Source: a virus (lineage: Duplodnaviria; Caudoviricetes). Taken from it: a stretch of 52,293 nucleotides of DNA. The stretch lies in the IMG/VR virus record IMGVR_UViG_3300020044_009895, positions 1 through 52,293 of that record. One strand, given 5' to 3'. Each line of letters opens with the position of its first letter. Position 1 is the first letter of the stretch. Positions 4,577 to 33,095 of the stretch are shown here, one piece after another. The notes beneath the pieces were generated by a model that saw only the letters and a program-made list of their open reading frames with translations, was not told the DNA's origin and did not search any database. The position numbers were made by a program, and so were the translations under genes.

Positions 4577-6163
4577 TTAGCTGCGCCCCCTCGCGTTTTG
4601 CCTGCCCATGATAGCACTGGGGAAGCCTCTCTTACTAGTCCCCATTTCGTTGGGGCTGCTCCAGATCTGGCCATCGGTCACGTAGGTTGGGCCTCCTGAC
4701 CAAGCCATTACGGCGGCATCACCCTCGTCCGGGCTTCTGCCAAGGCGCTTGGTCACCTCCTCTTTGGGCTCCATGTGGATTTTGCCGGAGCGCAGTTCCC
4801 ATGTCGGGGTGGCCAGGTCAGCCAGCAGGCTTTGGCTCGGGGGTAGGGAGATTGGCGATCCGCCTGGTTGGGATGGGTCAAGGGCCTCCCGGAAGCGCCA
4901 GTATGTCTCGGTTCGCATGTTGCCGAAGGCCAGTTGGCCGTCCAGCGTCCTGCGTACTGAGCCCTCCGATCCTTTGTAGGCTTTGACCTCAAGCTCGTTT
5001 TCCTTCAGTTGCTCGTAGACTGGGCCGCCGTAGCCCCCTCCCATGTCCACCACGATCAGGGCCTTGTTCCTGCGGTAGCTGACAATCACGCCGGCTGCGT
5101 ACTTTCCAGCCCGGTCTGGCGGAATGTCCTTGCCTGGCACCTTGATCATCTCCGAGTACCAGCCGTCATACCTTGGAGCAAGCACCATGAAGTCCTTGCC
5201 ACCACCAGAGCAATCAACGCCGATTGCGCACATCGGCACACCTGCTGGGCTCTTTTCGCTCCATCTGGCTTGGGCCAAGCGTATCCATTCGGTTGGGATC
5301 AGCTGGAATGCCTGGTCTTTCAGACCAGCTTCGAATTTTCCCTCGGCATAAGCACTTCGGAGCTCGGCCGGCAGGGCGTCTAGGGTGGCCCGGTAGTTGC
5401 CGTTCTGGGTCAGGTCCGGGTTGTCCGACAGCTTGGAGCGGATGAAGGTGCGGCTTTTCGCCATGACCTCCCTGCCTTCAACATAGTGAGGGCCTGGGCC
5501 ATCGACCTCAGTGTCGACGTCATCGATGGTCGTGTACCAGCGCAGTTCGCCACTCTTGGCCGGTTTGGGGTGCTTTGGATCCAGCCACGCAGCCCAGCGC
5601 TTGACCACCCACATGCCTTCGGGAGTGGTAGGCGGGTTTGTCGTTGCCACCACTCGGCAGCGTTGTCCTGGCTTGGTTGTCCTGGTCCATGTGGTGATGA
5701 ACAGGTACTGGCTTTCGGTGAAGTCGACCAGTTCGTCGAAGGCTTTAAGGTCATGCGCTATGCCCTTCCGCTTCTGTTTGTCGGCCTCCAGCTGGCAGCC
5801 ACCAATGTCGATGATCTTGTCCTGGTAGCGCCAGCCCTTCTGGGCGTTCTTGCCGTTGTCGTCACCGATGATGGCTTCGTACCGGTCAAACAGCTTCTCT
5901 GCTTCTTTGTTGGTGCGGCGCAGCACAAGGCTTCGGTGGTGCTCGGTCAGGCTCAGGCCGATGACAAGGTCGCTTTTGCCTCCACCAGCCTCACCGCCAA
6001 ACAGGAGCTCGTCTGCTTCTGAAAAGTAGGCGTCGGTTTGTGGACCTGGGGTTGGCACCCAGACCATGTCCTTGGTGGCTTCGAGTGCCTCCTCAACGAC
6101 TGCCTCCCGCTTTTCGGCTGGGAGGGCGTCGAGGGCTGTCAGGTACTCGTCAAGGGCGCCCAT
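4577..6163 (-). CDS. terL: Terminase large subunit
   Basis: Walker A GGEAGGGKS, Walker B AFDEL, TTNP coupling motif, nuclease motifs GVDCSGGGKD and SPDEGDA. Confidence 0.92.
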   Translation of the reverse strand: MGALDEYLTALDALPAEKREAVVEEALEATKDMVWVPTPGPQTDAYFSEADELLFGGEAGGGKSDLVIGLSLTEHHRSLVLRRTNKEAEKLFDRYEAIIGDDNGKNAQKGWRYQDKIIDIGGCQLEADKQKRKGIAHDLKAFDELVDFTESQYLFITTWTRTTKPGQRCRVVATTNPPTTPEGMWVVKRWAAWLDPKHPKPAKSGELRWYTTIDDVDTEVDGPGPHYVEGREVMAKSRTFIRSKLSDNPDLTQNGNYRATLDALPAELRSAYAEGKFEAGLKDQAFQLIPTEWIRLAQARWSEKSPAGVPMCAIGVDCSGGGKDFMVLAPRYDGWYSEMIKVPGKDIPPDRAGKYAAGVIVSYRRNKALIVVDMGGGYGGPVYEQLKENELEVKAYKGSEGSVRRTLDGQLAFGNMRTETYWRFREALDPSQPGGSPISLPPSQSLLADLATPTWELRSGKIHMEPKEEVTKRLGRSPDEGDAAVMAWSGGPTYVTDGQIWSSPNEMGTSKRGFPSAIMGRQNARGRS

Positions 6164-6166
6164 CAG

Positions 6167-7042
6167 TTAGTTGCGTTCGGATTCCCCGCGGCCTGGGTCT
6201 GGCACCACCACCGCGCTGGGCTCCAGTGTCGTCTTGTTGATCAGCGCACGGATCTTCGGGCTTGCTGCCAAGATGCCCGGGTTTGTACCCCTGCCGTCCC
6301 GATCCTGGCCCCACGTTTTCATGTGGTAGTCGTTGTCGCTGATGGCGCCGGCGAGGAAGTGGCGCTGCTGGGTGATGTTGGCCAGTTGGGCATCGCATTG
6401 GGATAGCCTGGCCTGCAGTTCGTTCTGGCGTGCCAGCAGCTTGATGTGCCACTGGTCGGACTCGGCCAGCCCATACCCTGGCATTGGTCGGAGCAGGTCG
6501 GATTCCGGCGGCACAATGATCTGGATGTCGAGCGTGTGGGCCAGGGTGATGAAGTGCTGGCAGCCTGCACGTTGGTACCCGTACTCCTCGTCGGCCGCCA
6601 TGTCCACACCGTACAGGCCAATGGCGTCAGGCTCAGCAGGAACTAGACCAGCAGCTTCGGTCTTGTCCCGATTGTTCAGAATCTGGTCGATTGCCATGGC
6701 CAGCATCCAGGCAATGCTTGAGGTGAAGAAGTAGTCGCCAAACAGGTGGCGTATCTCCTCCTCTGGGTAGGGCTTGCTGTTCGGGATTTCCCGTACCTTG
6801 TCCTTCATCCACACCAGCTTCTGGTGGCCCATCCAGAGCACGTATTCCGGGCTGAACCATGGCTTCTGCAGGGCTGCATTGCCGATGACTGGGGGCTCCC
6901 ACCGGTGAAGCTCAAACCAAGCGTCGCACCGTGGGATGTTCGGGAACAAGCCTGGGCTGCATCCCCAGATCGACCATGCCGGGTCCGAGAACGGCGCCAG
7001 GCGGATGGACGATGGGGCCGAGCCCATGATGGCTATTTTCAT
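6167..7042 (-). CDS. Putative CMP-nonulosonate glycosyltransferase (CstII/GT42- or Maf-like fold)
   Basis: KIAIMGSAPS / WSIWGCS / FTSSIAWMLAMAI / AIGLYGVDM parallel the CstII motifs VIIAGNGPS / DVFRCN / ITSGVYMCAVAI / IYLSGIDF (recalled from memory) in the same order. C-terminal coiled coil. Confidence 0.5.
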   Translation of the reverse strand: MKIAIMGSAPSSIRLAPFSDPAWSIWGCSPGLFPNIPRCDAWFELHRWEPPVIGNAALQKPWFSPEYVLWMGHQKLVWMKDKVREIPNSKPYPEEEIRHLFGDYFFTSSIAWMLAMAIDQILNNRDKTEAAGLVPAEPDAIGLYGVDMAADEEYGYQRAGCQHFITLAHTLDIQIIVPPESDLLRPMPGYGLAESDQWHIKLLARQNELQARLSQCDAQLANITQQRHFLAGAISDNDYHMKTWGQDRDGRGTNPGILAASPKIRALINKTTLEPSAVVVPDPGRGESERN

Positions 7043-7069
7043 GCTTCTCCTCCTCAGGAGTGGTTGGAA

Positions 7070-7504
7070 TCAGGTCGTAATCGATACGCCGGCCGTCAGC
7101 CCCACCACCGCCCATTGTGCAGTGCTCATGCCCACCAAGCGAACAAAGTCACCGGATGATTGCAGGCATACGCGCTGTTGGGTCGAGCCGAAGGTGCTGA
7201 TGATCTTGATGTTGCTGGTGCCGGTGATGATGTTGTGGCTGGTGCCGTTGCTCGATTGCATCAGCATCTTTTCGACACCAAGCATCGGCGGGTCCAGCAC
7301 ATAGGTCGATGCCGCGGCTGCGTTGAGGATGGTCAGGCCGTGGGCCGGGATCTGGGTTGCGGTAGATCCCAGGGTGGTCAGGCCTTGTTTGAGGGCGAAC
7401 GGGCCGACAAGGGCGCCGTCATCGTCAAGTGCAAGGCGGTCACCGTAGATGCTGGTGCGAATGCGGGAGCGGTACAGGGGGGCGTTGTTTGCAATGAATG
7501 GCAT
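7070..7504 (-). CDS. Hypothetical beta-rich, Ser/Thr/Gly-rich protein, possibly virion-associated
   Basis: 144 aa with AGGAGA SD and beta-strand patterning. Confidence 0.55.
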   Translation of the reverse strand: MPFIANNAPLYRSRIRTSIYGDRLALDDDGALVGPFALKQGLTTLGSTATQIPAHGLTILNAAAASTYVLDPPMLGVEKMLMQSSNGTSHNIITGTSNIKIISTFGSTQQRVCLQSSGDFVRLVGMSTAQWAVVGLTAGVSITT

Positions 7505-7629: not shown

Positions 7630-8373
7630 GCCACCCTGCTTCAGCCAGAAATAGGTATCTTTGTTGTTCAGTATGGGGTTGTTTGCACTGCGAATACTTA
7701 CGCCTTGAACGGTGATATTTGCAAAGTTCACAAGGTCATTGCGCCCAAACAAGGAAAAACCGTCAAGCGTTGCGGTTCCGTTGTCGCCTGTTACGGCGGC
7801 ATTATTGTTGATGCGGAGGCTGGAGCTAGCATTGCCAGCAAAGACCGCTTGCAGCACTTGCCTTGTTCCAAGTGTGGCGCTTACGCCTGCGCCAGTTATG
7901 GTGCTATATTGATACACCTCTGGCGTCACTCCAGCATTGAAAACAGCGGCAAACGTGGCAGGACCACCCGTTAGCCTGTCAAATATCGTGTCAAGAATTG
8001 TCCAAGTAACTGGAGTGAACAGCATCGTCACGACATACGGTGGGGAGATTGCAGCGCCAAACGCTGCGGTTTTCATAATGTTGGCTACGCCATCACCTGT
8101 CAATGAACCGTCTGCATTGATGGTTGGCCTTGCCGCACCGGCAGCAGTCAGGTGGTTACCGTTTCCGCTTCGGTCATCCCATTGCGAACACAACCCACCA
8201 CCAGCATTAGTCTGCCCAACACCCGGCAGCCAAAGCGCTGTTAGCGATTGTCTTGCATACCGTGGATCCCACGATTGGTCGGCGCTCAACGATCCAACGC
8301 GGCCACTCAAGTCAGAATCACGGCCAGCAGCAATCCTGCCACCACGAGCCCCACTGTACCTCTGGTAGATCAT
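7624..8373 (-). CDS. LamG/concanavalin A-like jelly-roll domain protein (putative carbohydrate-binding virion protein)
   Basis: SQWDDRSGNGNHLT...RPT motif typical of phage LamG-like domains. GC is visibly lower than in the flanks. Confidence 0.55.
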   Translation of the reverse strand: MIYQRYSGARGGRIAAGRDSDLSGRVGSLSADQSWDPRYARQSLTALWLPGVGQTNAGGGLCSQWDDRSGNGNHLTAAGAARPTINADGSLTGDGVANIMKTAAFGAAISPPYVVTMLFTPVTWTILDTIFDRLTGGPATFAAVFNAGVTPEVYQYSTITGAGVSATLGTRQVLQAVFAGNASSSLRINNNAAVTGDNGTATLDGFSLFGRNDLVNFANITVQGVSIRSANNPILNNKDTYFWLKQGGL

Positions 8374-8693
8374 GCCGGTTTGTACCAGCTTAAGGTGCCG
8401 GTGATGGCTTGATCAGCAATGACCGATATTCCAGTGGTCTGGGCCGTGCTAACAATGTTCCGGATCGTCGGGTTGATCTCGGATCCAGTGGCGGCCGTGG
8501 ACGAGGTGGTCACGTTCGCTGCACTTGTTGATCCGTATCGGGCAGAAAAGTCACCGCGGAAGGAGAACAGCACGTACCCCATGCCGGCTGGGGTGTCGAA
8601 GGCTTGGCCTACGCTTGAGGCCAGGGATACATGCTGGACAAAATCAGGGGCCGACAGGATCGTATTCGGCGGCAGGCCGGTGCCTTTGGGCAT
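8370..8693 (-). CDS. Hypothetical small Ser/Thr-rich structural-like protein
   Basis: 107 aa containing STSAANVTTSSTAATGS; ATGA overlap with the next gene. Confidence 0.55.
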   Translation of the reverse strand: MPKGTGLPPNTILSAPDFVQHVSLASSVGQAFDTPAGMGYVLFSFRGDFSARYGSTSAANVTTSSTAATGSEINPTIRNIVSTAQTTGISVIADQAITGTLSWYKPA

Positions 8694-10231: not shown

Positions 10232-11242
10232 TCATGTGATGCAATTGGCGGTCAGCGGGGTGCCGGCCGGGGTTTCCTTGGCAATCGTCCTGCCTATGTA
10301 GTTGCCAATGGTGTATGGGTCTGCCCCCTGGTTCGGCCGGCTGGTCACAATGTCCTGTTCCTGCAGGGTTTCGCCTGGTTTCATGTCGCGCCTGATGTAC
10401 AGGCTACGCCTCAGTTCAGTGTTTTCGCTGGCTGTTGGGCCGTAGGATACGCTCCCAATGGCCTTTGCTGCAATACGGCAATCCTCTGCCATTCGCTTGA
10501 ACTCGTGTGGTTCCATGCTGAATTCGGCGTCTGGTCCACCCATGGAGCGGTCCAGGATGAAGTGTTTCTCGATCACGGTGGCGCCCAAGGCTACTGCTGC
10601 AACGGCCACTGCCGATCCCAGCGTGTGGTCTGACAGGCCTACATTCCACTTGACGGTGCTCAGCGTCAGCCATTCCTTCATGTCTGCTATGGTGGCCAGG
10701 TTGGCATCCTCGGGGCTGGCTGGGTAGGCGCTGGTGCACTTGAGCATGGTCAGGTCCCTGCATCCCGATCCAATGGCTTTGGTTGCGGCCATCTTGGCTT
10801 CGTTATCGGTCGCCATGCCGGTGCTCATGATCATCGGCTTGCGGGTTTTGGCAATGGCTTCGATCAGCCGGATGTCGGTGAGCTCGAAGCTGGCTACCTT
10901 GTACATGGGGCAGTCCAGCGTTTCAAGGAATTCGAGGCTTGGCAGGTCGAATGGGGTGCTGAATGGCATCAGGTTCCAGCGCCATGCCTCGTCGAACAGG
11001 CGGCTGTGCCAGTTCCATGGGGTCCATGCGGTGTCGTACAGGTCGGCAAGGTTCTGCCCAGCCCACTTGCCGGTTTTGATGGTGTAGTTCTTGGCAACGC
11101 ACATCAGGTCTGGTGACCAGGTCTGGAACTTCACGGCGTCTGCACCGGCCATTGCCGCGGCTTCAATGGTCTTGAGTGCGGTTTCCAGGCTGCCGTTGTG
11201 GTTCGCGCTCAGCTCACAAACCATAAATGGGGGCTTTGTCAT
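10232..11242 (-). CDS. pseI: Pseudaminic acid synthase (NeuB family with C-terminal SAF domain)
   Basis: ELSANHNGS, ADAVKFQT, FSTPFD, YKVASFE, STGMA, KCTSAYPA, GLSDHTLG, VIEKHF, RRSLY. Confidence 0.88.
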   Translation of the reverse strand: MTKPPFMVCELSANHNGSLETALKTIEAAAMAGADAVKFQTWSPDLMCVAKNYTIKTGKWAGQNLADLYDTAWTPWNWHSRLFDEAWRWNLMPFSTPFDLPSLEFLETLDCPMYKVASFELTDIRLIEAIAKTRKPMIMSTGMATDNEAKMAATKAIGSGCRDLTMLKCTSAYPASPEDANLATIADMKEWLTLSTVKWNVGLSDHTLGSAVAVAAVALGATVIEKHFILDRSMGGPDAEFSMEPHEFKRMAEDCRIAAKAIGSVSYGPTASENTELRRSLYIRRDMKPGETLQEQDIVTSRPNQGADPYTIGNYIGRTIAKETPAGTPLTANCIT

Positions 11243-11697
11243 AACACTGCGGCCTTTCTTTCCCGACGATTAGCCTCATTTTTGGCTCTGCATATACGGC
11301 AGTTGCGCTTGGTTCCGTAAACGTAAGTATTCGCTTCATCGAACACATGGCCATTTTTACAATGTGTTTTGTTCCTTTGCCACCCTTTGGATGCCACTTT
11401 TGCCCGCCCTTTTTGTTTGGCATCCATATTGTTGTCTTGGATTGTCCCGAGGAATAGGTGGTCGGGCCGGACACACGATGGATTGTCGCAGCGATGCAAA
11501 ACGCACAACCCTTCAGGTATTTCACCGAAGTGTATCTGCCATGATGCCCGATGGCTTGATATTTGGGGGGCATTTCTATAAAGCCTAATACTCCCATATC
11601 CAAAATACATCTTGCGGCCAGTCCATTCCCAGCACCCATCCGATTTGTTGACGCGTGCCCAAAAAAACTCTGACAGTGTTTTTCTTGGTTTAGGCAT
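11239..11697 (-). CDS. HNH homing endonuclease
   Basis: CWEWTG, VLHRCDNPSCVRPDHLFLGT and THCKNGH motifs; AT-richer than flanks. Confidence 0.85.
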   Translation of the reverse strand: MPKPRKTLSEFFWARVNKSDGCWEWTGRKMYFGYGSIRLYRNAPQISSHRASWQIHFGEIPEGLCVLHRCDNPSCVRPDHLFLGTIQDNNMDAKQKGRAKVASKGWQRNKTHCKNGHVFDEANTYVYGTKRNCRICRAKNEANRRERKAAVL

Positions 11698-12109
11698 TTG
11701 GCTTGAGCCTGTAAGTGTACTGGATCAGTTCGCCACCCAGCTTCTGGAACAGGTGGTGGCTCGGGCCGTTGGTCGGCGCCACGTTGGCCAGGTATTCCGT
11801 CCTTGGGTGCTTGTCCATCACCGCTTTGATGCCGGCCATGGCGTAGCCTTTCTGGTGCTGGCTCTTGAATATGGCAACGCCAATCTCGCCCTTCTTCGTG
11901 ATGTATACGGATCCGACTGTCACCCCTTCGTCTTGTATCAAGTACCAGCCAAGGTGGTCGTGGTGCTCCACATGGCTTTGGTGGTCGGTCCATTCAGGCA
12001 GGTGGCCACCATGGCTAATGTTGGCTTCGGGTGGGCGCTCCTCGAGCAAGTCCCACAATACCTTGAGTGCGTCACTGTTCTGGCGCACGTCCTGCAGCGT
12101 TACTGGCAT
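11690..12109 (-). CDS. GNAT N-acetyltransferase (PseH-like role)
   Basis: EIGVAIFKSQHQKGYA and N..SHHLFQKLG acetyl-CoA motifs; lies inside the pse cluster. Confidence 0.75.
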   Translation of the reverse strand: MPVTLQDVRQNSDALKVLWDLLEERPPEANISHGGHLPEWTDHQSHVEHHDHLGWYLIQDEGVTVGSVYITKKGEIGVAIFKSQHQKGYAMAGIKAVMDKHPRTEYLANVAPTNGPSHHLFQKLGGELIQYTYRLKPNA

Positions 12110-12118
12110 GTCCTCTCC

Positions 12119-12859
12119 TCAGAGTCGTGTTTCTATGCCGTGCTCGGCCAAGTATAGGGCGGCTCCGCGTGGCGTGCAATCGGTGAATTGGAACAGGGCG
12201 CCGGCTGCGATTGCGCTGGCCCCAGCCTTTATGGCGTTCAGCATGTCCTGGTATCCAGAGCAGCCACCGTGTGCAATTACGGGGATGGGTACCGCGTCCG
12301 ATACCGCCTTGATGGTTTCCAGGTCGTAGCCTGTCATGGTGCCTTCCCGGTCTATGCTGGTTAGGATGATCTCACCTGCTCCCGCACTTGCCAAATGCTT
12401 GGCGTATTCCACTGGTGTTGCTGTGCCGCGTATTTTGGCGTGCCTGACGGTCATGGTTCCGTTGATCCACTCATAGTCCAGCGCGGCTGCGACTGCCTGG
12501 CACCCGTACATGGCGGCTATGTCGCTGATCAGGCCTGCCCCTGCGGCTCCAATGCACACCTTGTCGGCGCCGTTGTTCAGGCACACCTTGACGTCCTGGA
12601 GGCTGTCAATCCCTCCGCCGATCGTCAACGGCATGAAGCACTCGTCGGCGTACTTGCGGATATCGGCTGGATCCGGCCGGCGCTTCTGGGCTGTGGCGGT
12701 TATGTCCAGCAAAACCATCTCGTCGACGCCTCGCTGGGCCATGATGCGTACTGCCTGGCGGGCATGGCCTACCGATCGCCAGCCATTGAACTTCTCGCCC
12801 TTGACCAGCTTGTCGCCGTCCCGCAGAAGGGTTGGGATGATGCGCTTGGCCAGCATCAT
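12119..12859 (-). CDS. HisF2/WbuZ-type cyclase-like subunit associated with sugar amidation
   Basis: Start corrected to MMLAKRIIPTLL via ATGA overlap. Motifs VDEMVLLDI, PLTIGGGI, GAGEIILTSIDREGT. RIIPTLL lacks the catalytic Asp of true HisF. Confidence 0.8.
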   Translation of the reverse strand: MMLAKRIIPTLLRDGDKLVKGEKFNGWRSVGHARQAVRIMAQRGVDEMVLLDITATAQKRRPDPADIRKYADECFMPLTIGGGIDSLQDVKVCLNNGADKVCIGAAGAGLISDIAAMYGCQAVAAALDYEWINGTMTVRHAKIRGTATPVEYAKHLASAGAGEIILTSIDREGTMTGYDLETIKAVSDAVPIPVIAHGGCSGYQDMLNAIKAGASAIAAGALFQFTDCTPRGAALYLAEHGIETRL

Positions 12860-13254
12860 TTCTTCCAGCCGAAGTCCATGCTGCCATCCAGCCATACCCA
12901 CAGGTGCCGCATGTTGGCCACGTTCACGACATTGCTGTCTCGCGGGTAGACCTCGGCTGCGTCGTGGTTTCCGTATCCCGCTTCGCGTTTCAGGCGCTGC
13001 AGGTCGTCCCACGTGATGTTTTCTTCCCAACGGCCGTTGTTTCCCATGCTGGTGCGGTTAACCGACAGGCGCAGCATGGTGTTGCTTTCGTAGAAAGCCT
13101 GCACCAGAAATGCTCGTGAGCGCCAGACGCACATGCGATTCGGCTGCTGGGCTTTCAAGTGCTCCCATTCTCCTTTCGGCACTTCTACCAGATGCTCCGG
13201 ATACTTGGCGTTGTCTTTTTCAAGTTGGCGCCGCTGTTCTCTGTTTGGATTCAT
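12856..13254 (-). CDS. Conserved hypothetical phage protein
   Basis: Start MNPNREQRR at 13254 (TGATG overlap); motif ITWDDLQRLK...AEVYP...VVNVANMRHLW. Confidence 0.65.
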   Translation of the reverse strand: MNPNREQRRQLEKDNAKYPEHLVEVPKGEWEHLKAQQPNRMCVWRSRAFLVQAFYESNTMLRLSVNRTSMGNNGRWEENITWDDLQRLKREAGYGNHDAAEVYPRDSNVVNVANMRHLWVWLDGSMDFGWKK

Positions 13255-14372
13255 CACTCGTCCTTCAGCAGGCGCACGGTCTTGTCGTCCACGTGGTCCC
13301 GGGTGAAGATGTCCCAGTTGGTGAACTTGTCCATCAGCGTCCAGATTCTGTCCGGGTCGTAGCCAATCCGCTTCAGCATGTCCTGGTAGCCCACCCGCAT
13401 GTATTCTTCCGGGAACAGGCCGTCGTGGTGCTGTACCCATTCCAAGGCTGTTTCACGTGGAACCTTGCCTTGCCGGATGTCCACGCTGATCTGGGCGCAG
13501 CCCCTGCCGTACCCGTACTTGCGGTACATCATGTAGTCGTGCAGCCCGGTCTGGGCATTGTCTTGGTTTTCGCACAGCCACCAGTTTGCATGGCTGGCTT
13601 GTATGGCCCTCATGCCGTTCTTGGTGGCGATCCTGGCGTTCTGGGCGCTGTCCCATGGCAGGTAGTGGCCAAGGAAGTGGGCCTGGATGTGGCGTTCGGA
13701 TATGGTTCTGGCGTCCGGCGCCTGGTAGTCTTGCATGTCCTGCTTGGTGATTCCGTCATGGCCAATCAGGTCATCCGGCCGCAGGCCAAGGAATCCGCCA
13801 AACTCAGACACCCAGCGGCGCGTCATTTCCCGAGCTTGCTCAGTACCCGGGGGGCCGCCGTACTCGGCTTGGGGGTTTTCCCCGTACATGATCAGGGGTA
13901 TTCCGTAGGCAATGGCGGCTTTGAATGGGGTGGTGAAAATGCTCACGTGTTCCGGCCAGCTGATATCCCCGACCATTTCCAGCCCAGCCTTGTTCAGCTT
14001 CTTGCGGACTTCCGTGTTCGGGCTCACCTCGATGGTCGTGGCGAAGCGCTTCAGGTTGTCAATGTTGGAGCGGCCAATCTCGGTCAGGTGGCAGGTGCTG
14101 GCGGTCACCACCAGTGGTTTCACCCCCAGTTCAATCAGGGTCAGCACCTGGTACGTGCTGTCCTTACCGCCTGAGCTCGGGACAATGCAGTCGTATCCTG
14201 ATCCGTTCTTTGGGGCGCTCTCAAACAGTTCCTCAAGCAGCAGCTTGCGGTTAGACCAATCGATCTCCTTGCGCTTCTCGTAGGTGGTGCAGGCCGAGCA
14301 GACGCCATGCTCGTTGAAGTGAGTGTCGGGCCTGGTGTTGGGTATCAGGCACTTGGTGCAGCGTTTGTACAT
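13254..14372 (-). CDS. N-acetyl sugar amidotransferase (PseA/WbuX family)
   Basis: N-terminal CTKC...CSAC, PP-loop DCIVPSSGGKDS, YGENPQAEYGG, HDYMMYRKYGYGR. Confidence 0.88.
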   Translation of the reverse strand: MYKRCTKCLIPNTRPDTHFNEHGVCSACTTYEKRKEIDWSNRKLLLEELFESAPKNGSGYDCIVPSSGGKDSTYQVLTLIELGVKPLVVTASTCHLTEIGRSNIDNLKRFATTIEVSPNTEVRKKLNKAGLEMVGDISWPEHVSIFTTPFKAAIAYGIPLIMYGENPQAEYGGPPGTEQAREMTRRWVSEFGGFLGLRPDDLIGHDGITKQDMQDYQAPDARTISERHIQAHFLGHYLPWDSAQNARIATKNGMRAIQASHANWWLCENQDNAQTGLHDYMMYRKYGYGRGCAQISVDIRQGKVPRETALEWVQHHDGLFPEEYMRVGYQDMLKRIGYDPDRIWTLMDKFTNWDIFTRDHVDDKTVRLLKDE

Positions 14373-14391: not shown

Positions 14392-15069
14392 TTAGGTTGA
14401 TTGTTTGAGCAGGTCCGATTCCATGGCTGCAAGGTTTGCCGGGGTTTGTTGAAATACTGGCAGCCCTTGCTTCTCCATCAAAAACCACGTTATGTCTCCT
14501 TGTGGAGCTATCGGGTCGCGGTAGTATACAAAGCCATAGTCGATCAGCTTCAGGTCTTGATATCGGTCCATGATCTGGCCGGCGAAGTCATCCTTCCACA
14601 GCAGGTTGTCCTTGCCGCGGTAGGGGATCATGGTGCGCTTGGGCGAGTAGTATTCTGCCACCATGATCCAGCGCTTGCTGGAGTGGTACAGCAGGTCATA
14701 TACCTGGTTCAAGTCCTGCTTGGGGATGTGGATCAGCACGCCTCTGGTGTACGTCAAGTCAACCTGCGGCATGGGCTTCAGGTCTTGGAGCGGGCTGCAG
14801 ATCATACGCTCGCAGTGCTCGGCAAGGTACAGGCAGGTGTCCTTGTTGATTTCCACCCCTGTACGATGGATTCCAGACCACACTCGCGGAAGAATAGACA
14901 GGTTGGTACCCATCCCTGCCCCAAACTCGATCACTGACTTTGGGTCGAGGTCTGGGTTTGCGTCTTGAATCTTGCGGAACATCACATAGGACGCTGTCGC
15001 ATCGCCAGGGCTCCTGGCTGCGTATTCCTTGCCTTCGTTGCCGGTCCAGTGCTCTTGTTGCTGGTTCAT
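14392..15069 (-). CDS. Pseudaminic acid biosynthesis-associated SAM methyltransferase
   Basis: W.G..GKEY, EFGAGMGTN, GVEIN, RGVLIHI, AEYYSP..IPYRG, DYGFVY.RD...DITWFLMEK. Confidence 0.85.
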   Translation of the reverse strand: MNQQQEHWTGNEGKEYAARSPGDATASYVMFRKIQDANPDLDPKSVIEFGAGMGTNLSILPRVWSGIHRTGVEINKDTCLYLAEHCERMICSPLQDLKPMPQVDLTYTRGVLIHIPKQDLNQVYDLLYHSSKRWIMVAEYYSPKRTMIPYRGKDNLLWKDDFAGQIMDRYQDLKLIDYGFVYYRDPIAPQGDITWFLMEKQGLPVFQQTPANLAAMESDLLKQST

Positions 15070-15662
15070 TTGTGGAGTTCCTCGTACATGGTTAGGGCTT
15101 TGTGCCAGTCGTCCTCGGTGTTGATGTCAATGGCTCGACGAGGGTCAATCTGGATCATCCTGGTGCGGTCGCTTATCAGTGGGGTGCCGTTCAGGAAGGC
15201 ATGGCTTACGCCAAAGTAAAACTGGCCGGGATCCTTCAACCATTCGGCCACCGGTACGCAATACCATGCCCGGTGTGGGTCTTTGTTGTTGACCACCAGT
15301 TCAGCATGCTTCAGGTCCAGCGGGTCCAGCATCGGCGCGCAGGGGTAGATGCAGCAGGTAAAGTCTGGCTTGATCGGCTGGTCGCCACTGTCAAGTACCT
15401 CCAGAGCGTGCTGGATTACCGGCCATGTGGGGGTTTGGTCGTCGGCCAGGTTGGCTGGGCGCTTGAGCACTCTGGCCCGGTACTGCCTGGCTACGGCTGC
15501 CACCTCGTCGCTGTCGGTGCTGACGATGATATGGTCAAAGAGCCCGGACTTCCTGGCGGCTTCAATGCTGTAGGCGATGATGGGCTTGCCGTGGAAGAGC
15601 CGTATGTTTTTCCCTGGAATGCGCCGGCTGCCACCCCTTGCGGGAATAATTGCACAGGTCAC
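15066..15662 (-). CDS. pseF: Pseudaminic acid cytidylyltransferase (NeuA/PseF family)
   Basis: GTG start at 15662 (GTGA overlap); IIPARGGSRRIPGKNI, IVSTDS, CIYPCAP, DPGQFY, DINTEDDW. Confidence 0.82.
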   Translation of the reverse strand: MTCAIIPARGGSRRIPGKNIRLFHGKPIIAYSIEAARKSGLFDHIIVSTDSDEVAAVARQYRARVLKRPANLADDQTPTWPVIQHALEVLDSGDQPIKPDFTCCIYPCAPMLDPLDLKHAELVVNNKDPHRAWYCVPVAEWLKDPGQFYFGVSHAFLNGTPLISDRTRMIQIDPRRAIDINTEDDWHKALTMYEELHK

Positions 15663-16000
15663 AGCACTTCCGCCATCACTTGGTCCACCAGCCTTTCCAC
15701 AATCTCCTGGTTGCTTTTCTTGTCGGCCAGCATGCTGTTGATCATGAGGGCGCACCGCTGGGTAAGTCGTTTGCGTTTCATTTCGATCATCTGGTCGGAC
15801 AGGCTGACCACCAGTTCTCTGGGTTTCCCGTACTTGGCGTAGTAGCTGGTCTTGCCAATGGTGTCAGCAATTTCCAAGGCGGTCTGGGGGTCGTACCGGG
15901 TGAACAGGATGTCGCCGTTGGGCTGGCGCATCTTGATGATCACAAACCCTTGGAGGGCGTCTACCTCCAGGCTGGTGGTGACTTCTTCCACATTGCTCAT
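15659..16000 (-). CDS. Hypothetical protein
   Basis: 113 aa, translationally coupled on both sides. Confidence 0.6.
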   Translation of the reverse strand: MSNVEEVTTSLEVDALQGFVIIKMRQPNGDILFTRYDPQTALEIADTIGKTSYYAKYGKPRELVVSLSDQMIEMKRKRLTQRCALMINSMLADKKSNQEIVERLVDQVMAEVL

Positions 16001-16251
16001 TGCAGGTCACCGTCAATGGATCGGACTGTGCAGCCTGGGGCATCGATCAGCGGGCGCCGGTAGGGCGGGGCTTGCATCCGCAGGGGTTTGATGGGGAAGG
16101 ATGGGCAGATGGTAATGTCTCCCTTGGTCAGTTGCATGCTGCGTCTGGCGTTGATTCTCTGGGCTTCTGCTTCCAGGCGCAGGTTCTTGAGCCTGGTAGC
16201 TTCTGCTGAGGTGCGCCAGTTTCCTTTGCCTTTGATGGTTGTCTTGGTCAT
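15997..16251 (-). CDS. Hypothetical protein
   Basis: 84 aa with ATGA overlaps on both sides. Confidence 0.5.
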   Translation of the reverse strand: MTKTTIKGKGNWRTSAEATRLKNLRLEAEAQRINARRSMQLTKGDITICPSFPIKPLRMQAPPYRRPLIDAPGCTVRSIDGDLQ

Positions 16252-16682
16252 TTGAAACGCTCCAAATAATTTTGAACTAACTCCGCATAATTTTCAAAAG
16301 CAGCTACAGCATTGTTGCATTTTGGGCATAACAAAGCCCTGATTTTTCCTGTCGAGTGACAATGATCAACGGCCAATCTGTATTTGAAGTTGCTTTGGTG
16401 TTTGCCACAAATTGCACAACACTGATTCTGAGCATGAAACATTTCATCCCATTCCTTCTGGGAAAGGCCATATTGCTTTAGATTTAATTCTGCCCGTCTA
16501 TCCTTATTTTTGGCGTAAGACTTCGCACCACGCTCCTTGTTCATTTGCGCCAATTTCTCCCATTTTTCAGGCTGGTTGACTTTCATGTTTTCTACATATT
16601 TTTTTGATCTTTCGCGGGAGCAATGCTTGCACTCTCCATCGGTGTATCTTTCACTTTTCCCGCACCTGATGCATGGCTTCAT
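16248..16682 (-). CDS. Endonuclease VII-domain homing endonuclease
   Basis: Start MKPCIRCGK (ATGA overlap with pseC). YGLS...QNQCCAICG...LAVDHCHSTGKIRALLCPKCN. Strongly AT-rich. Confidence 0.85.
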   Translation of the reverse strand: MKPCIRCGKSERYTDGECKHCSRERSKKYVENMKVNQPEKWEKLAQMNKERGAKSYAKNKDRRAELNLKQYGLSQKEWDEMFHAQNQCCAICGKHQSNFKYRLAVDHCHSTGKIRALLCPKCNNAVAAFENYAELVQNYLERFK

Positions 16683-17338
16683 TTGAATGCCCTGATCAAA
16701 CTTAAATCCGGATAGTCGCTGTTGGTGCCCGGGCCCCAAGGCAGCGGATCGTTGTGCTTGGGCAGCGTTGCCAACCTGACTATGCCGGCTGCTGCCGTTT
16801 CCGGGCTCATGTATGCATGGTGGCCTATGATCAGGTCATGGTCATCTTTGGGTGGTACACCTTCTTTGCGGCCGTCAAACCTTGCACGGCGCAGCCATTC
16901 GTCTGCTTCGGGGTTGTCGTGGAGGATGGCGCCACCCTGCTGGATACCCAAGGTTTTGGACCAGTGAAAGCTGACGCACTGCATGTTGTTTGGCCGGAAC
17001 ATGCGGCTGGTGAAGTACCTTGCGCTGTCCCAAACCGGCAACGGTTCCAACTCGTATTCGCCTTCCCATTGCTCGTCCCTGAACACCGGCCGGCCGCCAG
17101 CGTGGATGATGCTCATGGGTACGCCAACGTAGGTGCGCTTAGGGATGCTGATTGGATCTCTGAAAAGCGTTGGTGAGCCATACTCATCAACGGTCAGGAG
17201 CGGACCAGGGCGAAGATGCCAGGCGCAGGCCAACAGCAGGGCCATCGTGCAGCTGGTGCTGGTTACTGCGTACTTGGCGCCGGTGTAGTTGCAAAGAGCC
17301 TGCTCGAAGTCTCGGACCACCTTGAATGCATCCATCAC
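16679..17338 (-). CDS. Short DegT/DnrJ/EryC1/StrS PLP sugar aminotransferase (PseC-like)
   Basis: FEQAL...GAKYAV..SCTMAL, WDSA, SFHWSK (PLP lysine), GGAI; only 219 aa. Confidence 0.75.
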   Translation of the reverse strand: MMDAFKVVRDFEQALCNYTGAKYAVTSTSCTMALLLACAWHLRPGPLLTVDEYGSPTLFRDPISIPKRTYVGVPMSIIHAGGRPVFRDEQWEGEYELEPLPVWDSARYFTSRMFRPNNMQCVSFHWSKTLGIQQGGAILHDNPEADEWLRRARFDGRKEGVPPKDDHDLIIGHHAYMSPETAAAGIVRLATLPKHNDPLPWGPGTNSDYPDLSLIRAFK

Positions 17339-18315
17339 TCCACCCCTGTCAGTAGTTCACGGATCTGGTTCACGCTCAGTCTTACCGCCTGGTCGCTGCT
17401 CATCTTGTCCTGCCGGCGCTCTTTGCTGCAGGTCTGCGCCCATGTGCCTTTGAGCCAGTAAGCGTCTTGGCCTACCCGCCAGAATTCCTGCGCCTCAGAC
17501 TGGCTGATCATTTCCTCGTGCATCTTCTCGCCTGGGGTCAGGCCAGTGCACACCAGTTCCTCCGCATCCATGGCCTTGGCCAAGTCTCCCACTTCATAAG
17601 CCGGCAGGCTTGGAACTACGAGCTCCCCGCCGGTCATGTTGTGGATGGTCCATTGCACCAGGTCTACGGCCTCCTGCAGGCTCATCCAGTAGCGGGTGCA
17701 CCTTGGGTCGGTTACGGTTACCGTTCGCTTGCTTTCCCGCTTGTGCCAAAGCATGGAGCGCCAGGTTGGGATAATCGATCCGGTGGATCCAGCAACATTT
17801 CCGTATCTGGTCACGGCAAAAGCTGGGCCGTCCTGTCCAACGATGTTGTTGGCTGCCAGCATCAGCTTCTCGCCCACCAGCTTGGTGGCGCCGTAGCAGT
17901 TCAGCGGTGCACAGGCTTTGTCGGTGCTTAGGTAGACCACCTCGATCGGTTCCCGGGCGTCCTTGTGCAGATTGATGGCCGATGTGATCACGTTCCGGGT
18001 GCCGTCGACGTTTGTGTTTACCATTTCGATCGGGTTTGTTTCGCCCACCTCCACCCGCTTTAGGGCTGCTGCGTGCACCACCACATCGGCATCGCGCATG
18101 GCCATCTGGAGCCTTGGCTGGTCCCGAACGTCACCGATGAAGAAGCGCAGGCGCTCGTCGTTCTTGAACTTCTGGCGCATCAGGTGCTGGGTGTACTCCC
18201 CTCGGGAGTAGATGCACACCTTGTTGGTGCTTTCATGTTCCAGCAGGTGCTTGGCGAAGGCCTGGCCGAAGTAGCCGGTGCCGCCGGTAATCAGGTAGTT
18301 GATCACTTGATGCAT
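17335..18315 (-). CDS. pseB: UDP-GlcNAc 4,6-dehydratase (inverting), PseB/FlaA1
   Basis: ITGGTGYFG, FFIGDVRD, HAAALK, STDKA, YGATK, RYGNVAGSTGS, GEKMHE. Confidence 0.88.
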   Translation of the reverse strand: MHQVINYLITGGTGYFGQAFAKHLLEHESTNKVCIYSRGEYTQHLMRQKFKNDERLRFFIGDVRDQPRLQMAMRDADVVVHAAALKRVEVGETNPIEMVNTNVDGTRNVITSAINLHKDAREPIEVVYLSTDKACAPLNCYGATKLVGEKLMLAANNIVGQDGPAFAVTRYGNVAGSTGSIIPTWRSMLWHKRESKRTVTVTDPRCTRYWMSLQEAVDLVQWTIHNMTGGELVVPSLPAYEVGDLAKAMDAEELVCTGLTPGEKMHEEMISQSEAQEFWRVGQDAYWLKGTWAQTCSKERRQDKMSSDQAVRLSVNQIRELLTGVE

Positions 18316-19879: not shown

Positions 19880-19951
19880 CTACACCTTCATCAGTTGCTT
19901 CAGCCATTCAATCCCGCGCTCGTCCCTTACTGCAGCCCCACTTACCTCAAA
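19880..19951 (-). pseudogene. Displaced original 3' end of the 20563-21090 endonuclease gene
   Basis: FEVSGAAVRDERGIEWLKQLMKV* aligns with LYVTGKMVRSGDSIVLVTEFL. Confidence 0.45.
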
Positions 19952-20594
19952 TCCCAGCAATCGCTTCCTCATATTTTTCTCGCCAATACATTGCCATCAA
20001 CCTGGCTGTGTTGTGGTCCATGTTGTTCTCGGCAATTGAGCCTAGCAGCAAATTCTCCGGCCGGTTGTCGTCTTTAATTCCATTGAAGTGCCTAACAACA
20101 GTTCCAGATGGGAGTTTTCCGTACTTTTTCAAAGCGACTAGCCTATGCTCGGCTACCAATCCACGGCCGGATGCTCTGACGCTTCTATGCCACATTGAAT
20201 GCTCATCGCAAAGAGCAATATCTGCTTGCGTCATACCACTTGCCGAAAGATAAATGTACCCGCTGCTGCTCCTCTGCCTACCAGTTCTTTGACGCGCTGG
20301 CTTCCACGCTATGCCGTTTCGGTTGAGGGTATGGAAGTCGATCCAATGCCAATATCTGGCGGATGGTATTTTGCTTTTTTCATTTCTTGCCCATACCAAT
20401 TTCCCATTCCTTCGTTTCCAATCCACTTCCCATGAGTCGGACCTGTATACCGGCGTCTGAATGCCAATCTTCCTCATGTATCCGGTTGGCACCAAATGCC
20501 ACTCTCTACCTGATTTCAGATGTGAATTCAAATTCCTTCCCCACACCATAGTGCCAGTGGTATTAGGGTGTGCCCAATCTAGTTCCCATGTCAC
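19947..20594 (-). CDS. HNH homing endonuclease
   Basis: VAEHRLVA...VVRHFNGIKDDNRPENL; AT-rich. Confidence 0.8.
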   Translation of the reverse strand: MTWELDWAHPNTTGTMVWGRNLNSHLKSGREWHLVPTGYMRKIGIQTPVYRSDSWEVDWKRRNGKLVWARNEKSKIPSARYWHWIDFHTLNRNGIAWKPARQRTGRQRSSSGYIYLSASGMTQADIALCDEHSMWHRSVRASGRGLVAEHRLVALKKYGKLPSGTVVRHFNGIKDDNRPENLLLGSIAENNMDHNTARLMAMYWREKYEEAIAGI

Positions 20595-31132: not shown

Positions 31133-32230
31133 TTACACCTTGATTTCGCGGATAGTGATGGATGAAGCAGCTACACCCCCGAATATCCTGGCTCCTGATT
31201 GGCCGTTAAATGTTGTCGTTCCTGCGCCAGAGGATCCAGCTCGCACCCGAAAAGTGGTAGACGAAGTGGTTCCCGCTGTCATGCGGTGAACAACTATGAC
31301 TTGTGTCATGCTGTTGGCGGCTCCCGCTGATACTTTTGCTGCGGCAAGAGCACCAGCAGTTGCGTCTTGAAAAAGCGCGGCACACAGATTGCCATCGGCA
31401 CTATGGGCCAGGTTAACCACTACCGTAATTTCAAGCGCATTGGTGGCGCTGGTAGGAGTAATTGCCAGCGTCATGTATTGATCGCCCTCAGTGATTTGAG
31501 GGATAGTGTCATCAACTGGAATAACCGTTGTTCCAGTAGCAACAGCACCTGTTTGGGTTGATACGTTTTGAACAATCGAACCTGCCAATGCGCTGGCTGC
31601 GGTTGCCGTATAACCAAGTGCGCCACCGGTCAATGTCAACGGGGAGGAGACACTGATTTCTTCTGCCGCACCGCTGCTTGCCGTGGTTCTGCCAAGCAGA
31701 CGGCTTGTTGACATAGTGAGCGTGCTTGCCGTGTAGGCAACAGCGGATGCCACAAATGCGCTGGCGGCTGACAATGCGGCACTTCCAAGGCCAAGAACAG
31801 TTCTTGCCGCTGCTGCATTGACGGCTGCCAGCAATCCTTGCGCGTATGCAGTCACCACGGCAAGAACAGTGCTGGCCTGTCCAAAGTTGATGGCATCAGT
31901 TCCCGGTACAGGACTTCCAGTCGTTGTCACGTACCAGAAGCCCACCGTGGTGCTTCCACCATTCACCTTGACCAGCGTGCCTTCGACCACATCTCGGGAT
32001 CCGTCAAAGTCTTGCGTGCGCTCCCAGGCTCCGGTGTCGCTCAGGTAGATGCCGTTGTCGATTGCCGAGGCTTGGTTCTTGACCAGCACCCGGCTGGAAC
32101 TGGTCAACACTCCATCGATGGTCTGCTCTCCAGATAGAGTGATGGCGGCCGTGGTCGCCACTGCCACTGGCGTCTTGATGGCTGTGTTTCCGAGAACCCC
32201 GGACAGGCGGTCGGTTTGGGTAGTTGTCAT
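31133..32230 (-). CDS. Tail fibre/virion structural protein, Thr/Ser/Ala-rich
   Basis: N-terminal VATTAAITLSGEQTIDGV...RVLVKNQ...NGIY domain; beta-rich C-terminal domain ending SSITIREIKV. Confidence 0.65.
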   Translation of the reverse strand: MTTTQTDRLSGVLGNTAIKTPVAVATTAAITLSGEQTIDGVLTSSSRVLVKNQASAIDNGIYLSDTGAWERTQDFDGSRDVVEGTLVKVNGGSTTVGFWYVTTTGSPVPGTDAINFGQASTVLAVVTAYAQGLLAAVNAAAARTVLGLGSAALSAASAFVASAVAYTASTLTMSTSRLLGRTTASSGAAEEISVSSPLTLTGGALGYTATAASALAGSIVQNVSTQTGAVATGTTVIPVDDTIPQITEGDQYMTLAITPTSATNALEITVVVNLAHSADGNLCAALFQDATAGALAAAKVSAGAANSMTQVIVVHRMTAGTTSSTTFRVRAGSSGAGTTTFNGQSGARIFGGVAASSITIREIKV

Positions 32231-32466
32231 GGCCTGTATCCTATCTTTTTGACGAGCGATTTACCAGCATCCACAAACCCTATGAGGAAGATCACAGATG
32301 CACCAATTGAGAACATTCCGACCAGCAGCCACGGCCATACGGTCAGGTCTGCTTCTGGCACCAAGTCCCGGACCAGATCGCCAAGCACCCGGAACACTCC
32401 AGCGGCCACCACATTGGCGCCGAGGAATACGCCGTTGATGGTCAGGAAGGCGGTCAGGTTGCTCAT
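32227..32466 (-). CDS. Small two-TM membrane protein
   Basis: 79 aa; ATGA overlaps. Confidence 0.5.
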   Translation of the reverse strand: MSNLTAFLTINGVFLGANVVAAGVFRVLGDLVRDLVPEADLTVWPWLLVGMFSIGASVIFLIGFVDAGKSLVKKIGYRP

Positions 32467-33095
32467 GCGCGCCTCCCGTAATAGGTGCTCTCGATCACCT
32501 GGCAGAGCATGGCTGACATGGCCATGAGCTCCTCGTCCTCACTTTGGCGCTTGTCCAGCTTGTAGCCGTCCTGGTAGTAGTCGTGGGGGGTTATTGAGAT
32601 GCCGACAGCTTCAGCGGTGCTGGTGCCTGCTGCGGATCCAGCGGCCGAGACAATCACCGCGCTGGAATTGCCATCTGCTCCAACGGCCACCGCCGTACTG
32701 GCTCCAGCTGCATTCATTACCGCGCTGGCAATTGCCGCTCCTGCTCCAGTTGCCGCACTGAATCCAATGGCGCTGGCTGCCCCAGAGACAATGGTTGCCG
32801 TGTTGCCGTCAGTTCCTACCGCTATGGCTGTGCTGGCGCCGGCAGACAGAATTGCCCCAGAGGAAATTGCCGCACCGACGAACTGGGCAGTGGATACCCC
32901 TGTTGCCGATACTGCTCCGGTCGCCGTAGCAGCGCCGGTCATGATGCCGGTACTGGTTCCTGCTGCTGTAGCCCTTACCGCAGCTATTGAAGCCCCTACT
33001 CCTATTGCCGTGCTTGCCCCTATGGACGATCCGGCCCCGCTGACAATCGTCGAGCTGCTTGATACCTTGGGGTGGAATAGAAGGAGGATTGACAC
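32463..33095 (-). CDS. Ala/Gly/Ser/Thr-rich repeat structural protein
   Basis: ~20-aa G(A/T)ST-A-x-x-VG repeats followed by an acidic C-terminal helix. Confidence 0.6.
   Translation of the reverse strand: MSILLLFHPKVSSSSTIVSGAGSSIGASTAIGVGASIAAVRATAAGTSTGIMTGAATATGAVSATGVSTAQFVGAAISSGAILSAGASTAIAVGTDGNTATIVSGAASAIGFSAATGAGAAIASAVMNAAGASTAVAVGADGNSSAVIVSAAGSAAGTSTAEAVGISITPHDYYQDGYKLDKRQSEDEELMAMSAMLCQVIESTYYGRRA

Follow-up and report, generated by a model that had tools for sequence, protein, structure and literature searches.

A predicted Maf/GT42-fold protein encoded beside a Ser/Thr-rich partner: a candidate nonulosonate O-glycosyltransferase of uncultured phages

The minus strand of the uncultured-phage record IMGVR_UViG_3300020044_009895, of which a stretch of 52,293 nucleotides (nt) was analyzed (hereafter the window, to which all positions refer), carries at 6167..7042 an ATG-started open reading frame (ORF) for a 291-residue protein, P0001, of an unnamed phage family. 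We propose that this protein is probably a minimal O-glycosyltransferase of the Maf/GT42 fold that uses cytidine monophosphate (CMP)-activated nonulosonic acids, and that its acceptor is the adjacently encoded Ser/Thr-rich protein orf144, probably a protein of the phage particle. The proposal is built on four results established here: the predicted fold, the conservation of the motif residues, a constant gene pairing, and an enrichment of the family in phages with nonulosonate biosynthesis cassettes. An earlier note on this DNA had read the gene as an orphan beside the large terminase gene terL with the motif series of a sialyltransferase-like enzyme.

An AlphaFold2 model of the protein was built from a 64-sequence alignment (mean predicted local distance difference test score, pLDDT, 89.9; predicted template modeling score, pTM, 0.76) and consists of a beta/alpha Rossmann-like domain (residues 1-186), a 48-residue helix (197-244) and a low-confidence tail. 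Residues 1-186 are predicted to adopt the fold of Maf enzymes, GT42 sialyltransferases and MptE. Foldseek returned four matches in the PDB at E<=1e-3, all of them CstII (best 1ro7_D, E 3.8e-4, probability 1.00), and all 12 rows listed down to rank 14 are CstII or Cst-I; the next ranks go to a thiamine pyrophosphokinase (TPK), to 9c08, a sialyltransferase of Pasteurella, and to the MptE kinase 8sd5. In a structural search independent of Foldseek, in which the model was aligned to 48,161 chains, only four chains reached Z>=8: Maf 5mu5 (10.6), the MptE-type 6-hydroxymethyl-7,8-dihydropterin pyrophosphokinase (HPPK) 8sd5 (9.2), Cst-I 2p56 (8.9) and SteA (8.3). The top match, Maf 5mu5, places model residues 1-186 on the central Maf_flag10 domain (residues 273-500) with a root mean square deviation (rmsd) of 2.8 Å over 151 residues. 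A second comparison gave Z 9.5 for CstII 1ro8 (152 residues, 18% identity), and the GT42 enzymes overall scored Z 8.7-9.5, with rmsd 3.4-3.7 Å, 147-157 aligned residues and 15-20% identity. GT29 sialyltransferases scored Z 6.0-6.5 in the 48,161-chain search and 6.3-6.9 in the second comparison, and unrelated Rossmann-like folds reached Z 4.7 at most, a clean drop after GT29. In a viral structure library the top matches were uncharacterised proteins of uncultured phages, and the few named ones further down were DUF115, GT29 and MptE-like. The earlier note had anticipated a CstII (GT42), Maf or MptE-like fold and had suggested AlphaFold and Foldseek against CstII, GT29 and Maf as a check; CstII came out on top in Foldseek, and over all structural comparisons Maf was best, followed by CstII and Cst-I, with GT29 weaker. 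An unrelated fold would have spoken against that note, an objection that falls away because the Maf/GT42 fold is predicted.

The four motifs listed in the earlier note are all present in the translation in the order given there: KIAIMGSAPS at residues 2-11, WSIWGCS at 23-29, FTSSIAWMLAMAI at 106-118 and AIGLYGVDM at 140-148. They make up the conserved core of the family and thus exceed chance. In the model of the putative catalytic domain (6485..7042, minus strand; pLDDT mostly 92-98), the G7-S-A-P-S11 loop follows strand 1, E44 and H46 close strand 3, S108-S109 open helix 109-130, G145-V-D147 follows strand 140-144, and E153, Y154 and Q157 open helix 153-170. The single long helix that comes next (6311..6454, minus strand; assigned by DSSP on the model, pLDDT ~95) is kept across the family with the motif L.GA.DD..Y...TW. 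The C-terminal coiled coil of the earlier note is replaced by this one predicted helix, which in structure searches resembles generic coiled coils only (Z ~5.7). Residues 250-291 (6170..6295, minus strand) form a variable tail of low confidence (pLDDT 42-74) that is unaligned among relatives. A Lys/Arg-rich C-terminus (e.g. ...KPK..KRKR), absent from the window protein, closes about 15 of 35 close relatives and could act as a tag for binding DNA or particles.

The protein itself matched nothing in Pfam, PHROGs or NCBIfam, and against PDB sequences its lone match (E 0.39) fell on the coiled-coil part and is not a real one. A word-indexed search nevertheless recovered 1381 relatives at E<=1e-3 from 2645 candidates, and an exhaustive search of 1.84 billion cluster representatives recovered 2111 at E<=1e-3, with 1146 of them reaching <=1e-10 and 141 reaching <=1e-30; the gene is therefore not an orphan. 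The expectation that automated pipelines would call it hypothetical was borne out, as no word-indexed relative carries a Pfam domain or any source name besides 'hypothetical protein'. The family's conserved core spans residues 1 to ~245. Cellular occurrence is limited to two short contigs of metagenome-assembled genomes among ~185,000 species (one genome per species), on which a cellular or prophage origin was rejected, and the family is viral almost throughout. A tblastn search with three different members matched a single one of the 50,697 phage genomes deposited, that of Microcystis phage Mvi-Yong1342-1 (PP496355.1, 34781-35584; 5902-6705 in locus L001; E 3.4e-58 to the family hidden Markov model, HMM). 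Its homolog is labelled 'type 11 methyltransferase', and the predicted fold makes this label doubtful and suggests a mis-annotation.

Conservation within the family is at the level of terL and the portal gene. Residues G7, S8, C28, S29, S108, S109, G145, D147 and M148 are invariant in 35 relatives, and G7, H46, A117, G145, E153, Q157 and Y190 in 64 relatives at 33-54% identity, where S12, E44, S108, D147 and M148 are among the positions conserved to at least 90%. The same conservation was found in 12 of the most distant members; E44 is invariant both there and in the 35-relative alignment. Four members (P0121, P0200, P0213 and P0272) contain inteins, at two sites four residues apart within D-M-x-A | x-E-E-Y | x-Y-Q-R, the motif of highest conservation. 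Insertion follows 'DMSA' in P0121 and 'EE(W/Y)' in P0200 and P0213, corresponding to window residues 150/151 and 154/155 (~6578-6593). Inteins tend to insert in functional motifs and are uncommon in small accessory enzymes, so their presence in one suggests that the family protein matters to these phages. Longer fused forms are limited to three proteins, two with inteins and one with an unknown N-terminal extension, and a Pfam scan of 25 long or fused members gave no informative domain beyond weak hints of intein and PhyH. The N-terminal domain fused to the enzyme in P0262 (504 residues) faintly resembles a PhyH-type 2-oxoglutarate-Fe(II) dioxygenase (E 0.0014, below cut-off) and may be a second protein-modifying activity.

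At the sequence level, the links to Maf and GT42 are each weak, and all run in the same direction. A profile of the 64 family sequences gave 14 matches to PDB sequences at E<=10. Half of them are GT42 enzymes, namely 9c08 (E 0.38) and six entries of CstII (E 1.2-1.3), which align on TSS..A.AI..I.L.G.D..E..Y; the remaining seven, all coiled-coil proteins, align on the long helix. A 35-sequence profile returned only coiled-coil noise from the PDB. For comparison with Maf, 21 genuine PF01973 domains were collected from 14 of 121 bacterial genomes. Alignment of family and Maf profiles with hhalign gave P 0.018; its score, 22.0, exceeded the highest value reached by 40 column shuffles (20.4) as well as the two reversed controls (15.0 and 13.5). 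A second alignment gave P 0.02 over 47 columns, and the C-terminal part alone P 0.009. With a Maf HMM constructed for this analysis, scores of family members rose to 10.0 bits, compared with 2.1 bits for reversed controls. In the ESM Atlas, PF01973 was the sole Pfam label near the protein; it lay below threshold and serves as a lead only.

These alignments indicate candidate active-site residues. Maf_flag10 is described as a modified GT-A fold related to CstII, with residues 324 and 415 of MmMaf critical for activity and D272, D357 and S334 required in CbMaf (10.1101/2020.06.03.131540); the accessible text of this preprint names the MmMaf pair both as E324/D415 and as Asp324/Glu415. Maf domains aligned to 5mu5 identify position 324 as the Glu closing strand 3 ('PDFQMLLE') and position 415 as the Asp in 'LFGVDLG'; 'GPTV' contains T392. 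The counterparts in the window protein would be E44, the Glu that closes strand 41-44, the TSS at the start of helix 109-130, and D147 in an identical G-V-D. They lie 37, 102 and 140 residues from the first Gly of the loop, and the corresponding distances in 5mu5 are 45, 113 and 136. The equivalences of D147 and of the Ser come from alignments, in which hhalign pairs FFTSS...GVDM with Maf GG[ST]V...GQDL. The Maf profile aligns to the MptE kinase 8sd5 over positions 20-125, the N-terminal half only. The motif [ST][SG]..A.A..G..I.L.G.D, over which the window protein aligns with GT42 and Maf, lies outside that alignment; its [ST]...G-x-D elements are common to Maf and GT42, and by this motif the protein is placed, as far as alignments can tell, on the glycosyltransferase branch of the fold. 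In CstII the catalytic His, which we take to be His188, lies downstream of G-x-D. Residues 148-190 of the family contain no invariant or nearly invariant His, the sole invariant His in the alignments being H46.

The presumed acceptor was identified from the gene neighborhood. Directly upstream on the same strand lies orf144 (7070..7504), which encodes a small protein with 20.8% Ser plus Thr (S+T). After deduplication, 107 unique enzyme sequences were available, and an orf144 homolog was found directly upstream on the same strand in 97 of these loci (median gap 37 nt) and further upstream in 5; the 5 remaining loci have less than 500 nt of upstream contig. A Ser/Thr-rich partner thus precedes the enzyme in 102 of 102 unique loci with upstream room. 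Reciprocally, among 40 loci found through the partner's N-terminal motif, TSI.GRRLGLD, the enzyme lies downstream in 36 of the 39 with room. The partner family (83-219 residues) has a median S+T of 26.3%, against 13.1% in all ORFs of the loci, and about 22 alignment columns are at least 60% Ser/Thr. The tripeptide ST[AG] occurs 173 times where 51.7 are expected (0 of 300 shuffles), a count that is inflated by shared ancestry and is not independent evidence. Partner proteins have no PHROG or PDB identity and no source name; the RecA rows in the PDB search of the partner were rejected as artefacts of multi-copy fusion chains. The protein is most plausibly virion-associated.

Proximity to terL proved to be a narrower feature than the earlier note implied. 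In the window, the stop codon of the enzyme gene is separated from the terL start (terL, 4577..6163, minus strand; phrog_979, E 2.8e-25) by a 3-nt spacer, and 79 of the 80 related viral loci in a first set likewise have terL after the gene, while the last one breaks off at the contig edge. A second set, seeded with distant members, contained 17 loci without a detectable terL nearby. Of 85 unique loci with room, 72 have a terL homolog no more than 2.5 kb downstream, and in 13 it is absent from the vicinity. PHROG-annotated neighbors in nine terL-less loci show the gene some 1 kb past the major head protein in six (L105, L107, L135, L140, L154 and L157), between the portal and a head-closure protein in L119 and near tape-measure genes in L110; L117 was uninformative. 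The enzyme-partner pair stays together away from terL, after the capsid gene or among tail genes. Adjacency to terL is a feature of a clade and not of the family, and the truly constant neighbor of the enzyme is the Ser/Thr-rich upstream gene.

The window also carries a pseudaminic acid (Pse)-type cassette on its minus strand, in which three genes exceed the curated NCBIfam cut-offs. These are PseI, pseudaminic acid synthase (10232..11242; TIGR03586, 394.9 bits, cut-off 340.25; Pfam NeuB and SAF), a WbuX-type N-acetyl sugar amidotransferase (13254..14372; TIGR03573, 273.8 bits, cut-off 203.2) and a methylase associated with pseudaminic acid biosynthesis (14392..15069; TIGR03587, 176.6 bits, cut-off 112.05). 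Matches below the curated cut-offs identify a WbuZ/HisF2-like acetamidino-modification protein (12119..13030; TIGR03572, E 2.3e-64; Pfam His_biosynth), a PseF-like cytidylyltransferase (15066..15755; TIGR03584, E 1.1e-57, 195.2 bits, cut-off 205.7; Pfam CTP_transf_3) and a PseB-like UDP-N-acetylglucosamine (UDP-GlcNAc) 4,6-dehydratase (17335..18315; TIGR03589, E 1.6e-98; Pfam Polysacc_synt_2). A DegT/PseC-like aminotransferase ORF of 219 residues (16679..17338; Pfam DegT, E 1.3e-16) matches the PseC model over a short stretch only. The PseF-like cytidylyltransferase would make the CMP-activated donor. PseG, PseH and HisH/WbuY were not recognisable in the window cassette, and no further glycosyltransferase was recognised among the 42 window ORFs scanned.

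Such cassettes accompany the family beyond the window. Among the unique loci of the terL-adjacent clade whose contig extends 8 kb or more upstream, 24 of 25 have cassette genes (20 with PseI/NeuB, 4 with others). The base rate is very low, as a homolog of the window PseI (E<=1e-10) occurs in only 3 of the 50,697 phage records deposited. Phage genomes with this family are strongly enriched in nonulosonate cassettes. An unrelated complete genome of 66.7 kb and siphovirus type (G132; tape measure, Terminase_6C terL) carries the pair together with a different cassette: GNAT, NeuB, a cytidylyltransferase, a full-length DegT and a UDP-GlcNAc 2-epimerase. We take this gene set to represent a legionaminic/neuraminic-type route and not the Pse type. 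Fifteen whole records were picked because their flanks lacked a cassette, so that absences are over-represented among them; NeuB was present in 4 and absent from 11.

A number of observations weigh against the proposed reading. The Foldseek TM-scores are low (0.29-0.44). Every sequence link is sub-significant and rests on one motif of ~30 residues. The N-terminal 60 residues do align to the Maf G-x-G-P-S loop, colinear with the central motif, at a level that is not significant (P 0.13 for this part alone, with 6 of 60 shuffles scoring as high), and the equivalence of E44 to Maf E324 comes from spacing and secondary structure only. No family member reaches PF01973 (0/35 and 0/64; gathering score 34.6 bits), to which the window protein has no match at E<=1, and a six-frame search of the window with PF01973 gave no candidates; PF06002 is touched by 1 of 64 members, below threshold (E 0.092), and is not matched by the window protein. 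Since neither threshold is attained, the proteins form, by profile criteria, a separate family within the superfamily. On the genomic side, the other three of the 39 loci found through the partner motif encode a partner-like Ser/Thr-rich protein immediately ahead of terL, with no enzyme, and in the Microcystis phage the small upstream ORF is not detectably orf144-like. Finally, four of the 11 records without NeuB also lack a cytidylyltransferase, namely G124 (96% complete), G126 (88%), G133 (100%) and the complete genome of Microcystis phage PP496355.

The last of these observations rules out strict coupling to a phage-encoded Pse pathway, and with complete relatives that have neither gene, the donor is therefore not always a phage-made CMP-Pse. 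The suggestion of the earlier note that the enzyme would use the product of PseF fits the window, with its PseF-like protein and Pse cassette, and does not extend to those relatives. Maf enzymes are described as using CMP-3-deoxy-D-manno-octulosonate (CMP-Kdo) or CMP-N-acetylneuraminic acid (CMP-Neu5Ac) if the native donor is missing (PMC11339370; 10.1101/2020.06.03.131540, in their accessible text). Because Maf enzymes accept these sugars, a host-supplied donor is plausible, by analogy, in the cassette-less phages.

Other explanations share much of this evidence. A nonulosonate or Kdo transferase of the same fold could act on an acceptor other than orf144, such as the capsid, other Ser/Thr-rich tail or fiber proteins, or host lipopolysaccharide, capsule or flagellin (takeover or superinfection exclusion). 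We consider this unlikely, though the most serious of the alternatives: the fold and cassette evidence serves it equally well, the window has four further Ser/Thr-rich ORFs (23-26% S+T), partner-like proteins occur without the enzyme, GT42 enzymes act on lipooligosaccharide according to their PDB titles, and a sialyltransferase annotated in a phage has been speculated to target host exopolysaccharide (PMC12772287, in the text accessible). However, only the orf144-like gene is constant across genome backbones (102/102 loci, median gap 37 nt), the position is always within the virion-structural module, and the partner's many conserved Ser/Thr columns suit an acceptor of O-glycosylation. The fold is also common to pyrophosphokinases, and fold alone is therefore no proof of chemistry. 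The scores of MptE HPPK (Z 9.2), TPK (up to 9.1) and SteA (8.2-8.3) lie near those of GT42, several complete family-bearing genomes have no nonulosonate genes, and the one deposited homolog is labelled a methyltransferase, all of which would agree with an MptE/TPK-like pyrophosphokinase or a nucleotide-dependent transferase that phosphorylates or nucleotidylates a small molecule or the partner. We regard such a chemistry as improbable. The kinase alignments cover 119-134 residues (8sd5, 132; 3lm8, Z 9.1, 119), against 147-157 for GT42 and 151 for Maf, and structure-based identity is 11-14% for the kinases versus 17-20% for CstII/Cst-I; the [ST][SG]..A.A..G..I.L.G.D motif aligns with GT42 and Maf, while only the N-terminal half of the Maf profile aligns to MptE, and the family co-occurs with two different nonulosonate cassettes.

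Two further possibilities concern non-enzymatic roles. Strict adjacency downstream of orf144, a long helix as a possible docking element and the weak similarity of the Maf C-terminal helical domain to flagellin chaperones (noted in PMC11339370, in its accessible text) would suit a non-catalytic assembly factor or chaperone for orf144 that retains a degenerate enzyme fold, comparable to tail-fiber assembly proteins. This is very improbable, given that the residues of the nucleotide loop and the acidic residues vary little or not at all at 33-54% identity, that inteins sit in a conserved motif and that conservation equals that of terL and portal, as is typical of an active enzyme. A role in packaging, as small terminase subunit (TerS) or terminase accessory factor, might be entertained from the terL homolog within 2.5 kb downstream in 72 of 85 loci, the 3-nt spacer in the window, a helix able to oligomerise and the failure of Pfam and PHROGs to identify a terS in the window. 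We give it hardly any weight. No terL is nearby in 13 of 85 loci, where the pair follows the major capsid gene, sits among tail genes or is flanked by the portal and head-closure genes; a terS of typical form occurs as a gene of its own between the homolog and terL of the Microcystis phage; and the predicted fold is that of an enzyme, with polar residues kept invariant, and does not show a helix-turn-helix joined to an oligomerisation core. The fold, the clades away from terL and the separate terS effectively refute a TerS identity.

The candidate O-glycosyltransferase is best compared with the Maf flagellin nonulosonic-acid O-glycosyltransferases (PF01973), of which Magnetospirillum magneticum Maf 5mu5 is its best structural match. 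Both have colinear motifs, namely a G-x-x-P-S loop, an acid closing strand 3, [ST] at a helix start and G-x-D. As maf genes adjoin flagellin and glycan genes in the accounts accessible (PMC11339370; 10.1101/2020.06.03.131540), so the phage gene adjoins a gene for an acceptor-like Ser/Thr-rich protein and mostly a Pse- or legionaminic acid (Leg)-type pathway. Maf is described as having three domains, N-terminal Rossmann-like, central and a C-terminal helical bundle (PMC11339370), and exceeds 600 residues, whereas the 291-residue phage protein has neither the N-terminal nor the helical-bundle domain and carries the 48-residue helix instead. Structure-based identity to Maf is 11%, the PF01973 HMM is not matched, the family is viral, and a small phage protein takes the place of flagellin as presumed acceptor. 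The GT42 enzymes (Campylobacter CstII and Cst-I; Pasteurella 9c08; PF06002) are the top Foldseek matches and the best sequence matches outside coiled coils, at E 0.38-1.3, which is not significant. They are single-domain proteins of similar size, like the phage protein, but sialylate lipooligosaccharide glycans and not protein Ser/Thr. The MptE-type HPPK 8sd5 and the thiamine pyrophosphokinases belong to the same fold superfamily, and MptE has the N-terminal half of the PF01973 profile in common; the family-bearing phages provide no pterin or thiamine context.

Glycosylation of mycobacteriophage virions offers a likeness in genome organization, as its glycosyltransferase genes lie in the structural operon, beside the capsid gene, and are thought, in the sources as accessible, to decorate the particle. 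The glycosyltransferases of those phages come from different GT families, with ordinary nucleotide sugars as donors. Literature searches on the present family and on nonulosonate glycosylation of phage particles returned no description of either, and no report of nonulosonic acids, Maf/GT42-fold enzymes or a dedicated small acceptor in the mycobacteriophage systems. A sialyltransferase is annotated in Azotobacter phage TayeBlu, and its target is speculated to be the host (PMC12772287, in the accessible text).

Several features of the window and of related loci stand beside these results. A Shine-Dalgarno sequence, GAGGAGGAG (7047..7055, minus strand), was read 4 nt 5' of the ATG of the enzyme gene. 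Beyond terL come a T7-type portal (PF12236) and then the capsid gene. Further Ser/Thr-rich ORFs lie at 8370-8693 (26% S+T), 31133-32230 (25.5%), 32463-33095 (24%) and 33099-33836 (23%), the median for 40 window genes being 10.6%; from their composition these four are possible additional glycosylation targets, e.g. fibers or decoration proteins. Within the cassette, the 219-residue DegT/PseC-like ORF (PseC models have ~380 positions) overlaps an ORF with an endonuclease VII domain (16248-16739), and 19947-20594 encodes an HNH endonuclease; the cassette may have suffered invasion by homing endonucleases, or the aminotransferase may have been cut down. Between PseI and WbuZ, a 259-residue ORF (11214-11993) matches no Pfam or NCBIfam entry and may fill the role of PseG, PseH or HisH/WbuY. 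An ORF of 2074 residues (37323-43547) has the ADP-ribosyltransferase domain of polyvalent proteins (PF18760, E 2.9e-33) and is followed by a 920-residue protein with an SLT transglycosylase domain; the two are probably ejected internal virion proteins. In the three enzyme-less loci, the Ser/Thr-rich proteins at L202 1832-2281, L203 2805-3254 and L204 1228-2196 share with the partner only the N-terminal motif 'TS(I/V)HGRR(L/F)G', which may be a portable docking or recognition peptide.

As a mechanism for the proposed glycosyltransferase, we envisage that late in infection the enzyme would take a CMP-activated nonulosonic acid and place the sugar on Ser/Thr hydroxyls of the orf144 protein, the putative acceptor, which would be sited on the particle. 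The phage of the window would supply the donor itself, as a pseudaminic-acid derivative produced by its PseB, PseC-like, PseI, WbuX/WbuZ, methylase and PseF proteins; cassette-less relatives would draw on a CMP-sugar made by the host, for example CMP-Kdo. Binding of the CMP donor would fall to the G7-S-A-P-S11 loop and S108/S109, E44 and D147 would act like Maf E324 and D415, and the 48-residue helix may mediate oligomerisation or acceptor docking. More tentatively, and as a conjecture that may well prove too broad, the pair could constitute a two-gene "virion sialylation" module, in which a stripped-down Maf/GT42-fold enzyme would load pseudaminic-, legionaminic- or Kdo-type sugars on a dedicated Ser/Thr-rich carrier that decorates the particle. 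The module would move as a unit between unrelated backbones and recruit a phage or a host pathway, and the resulting host-like acidic glycan coat could serve adhesion, camouflage or stability.

With 2111 representative clusters set against a single one of 50,697 deposited phage genomes, the family is one that no annotation library recognises, and its description would correct a likely mis-annotation, the 'type 11 methyltransferase' label of the sole deposited homolog. A compact protein-O-sialyltransferase with a catalytic domain of ~190 residues and a cognate acceptor of 150 residues would, if the proposal is correct, also become available for glycoengineering, for which Maf enzymes have already been explored (PMC11339370, in its accessible text). 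If the enzyme acts as proposed, nonulosonic acids would join the short list of phage particle modifications, and the presence of costly Pse/Leg pathways in lytic phages would be explained. Thousands of uncultured phage lineages would then O-glycosylate a protein of their own with sialic-acid-like sugars.

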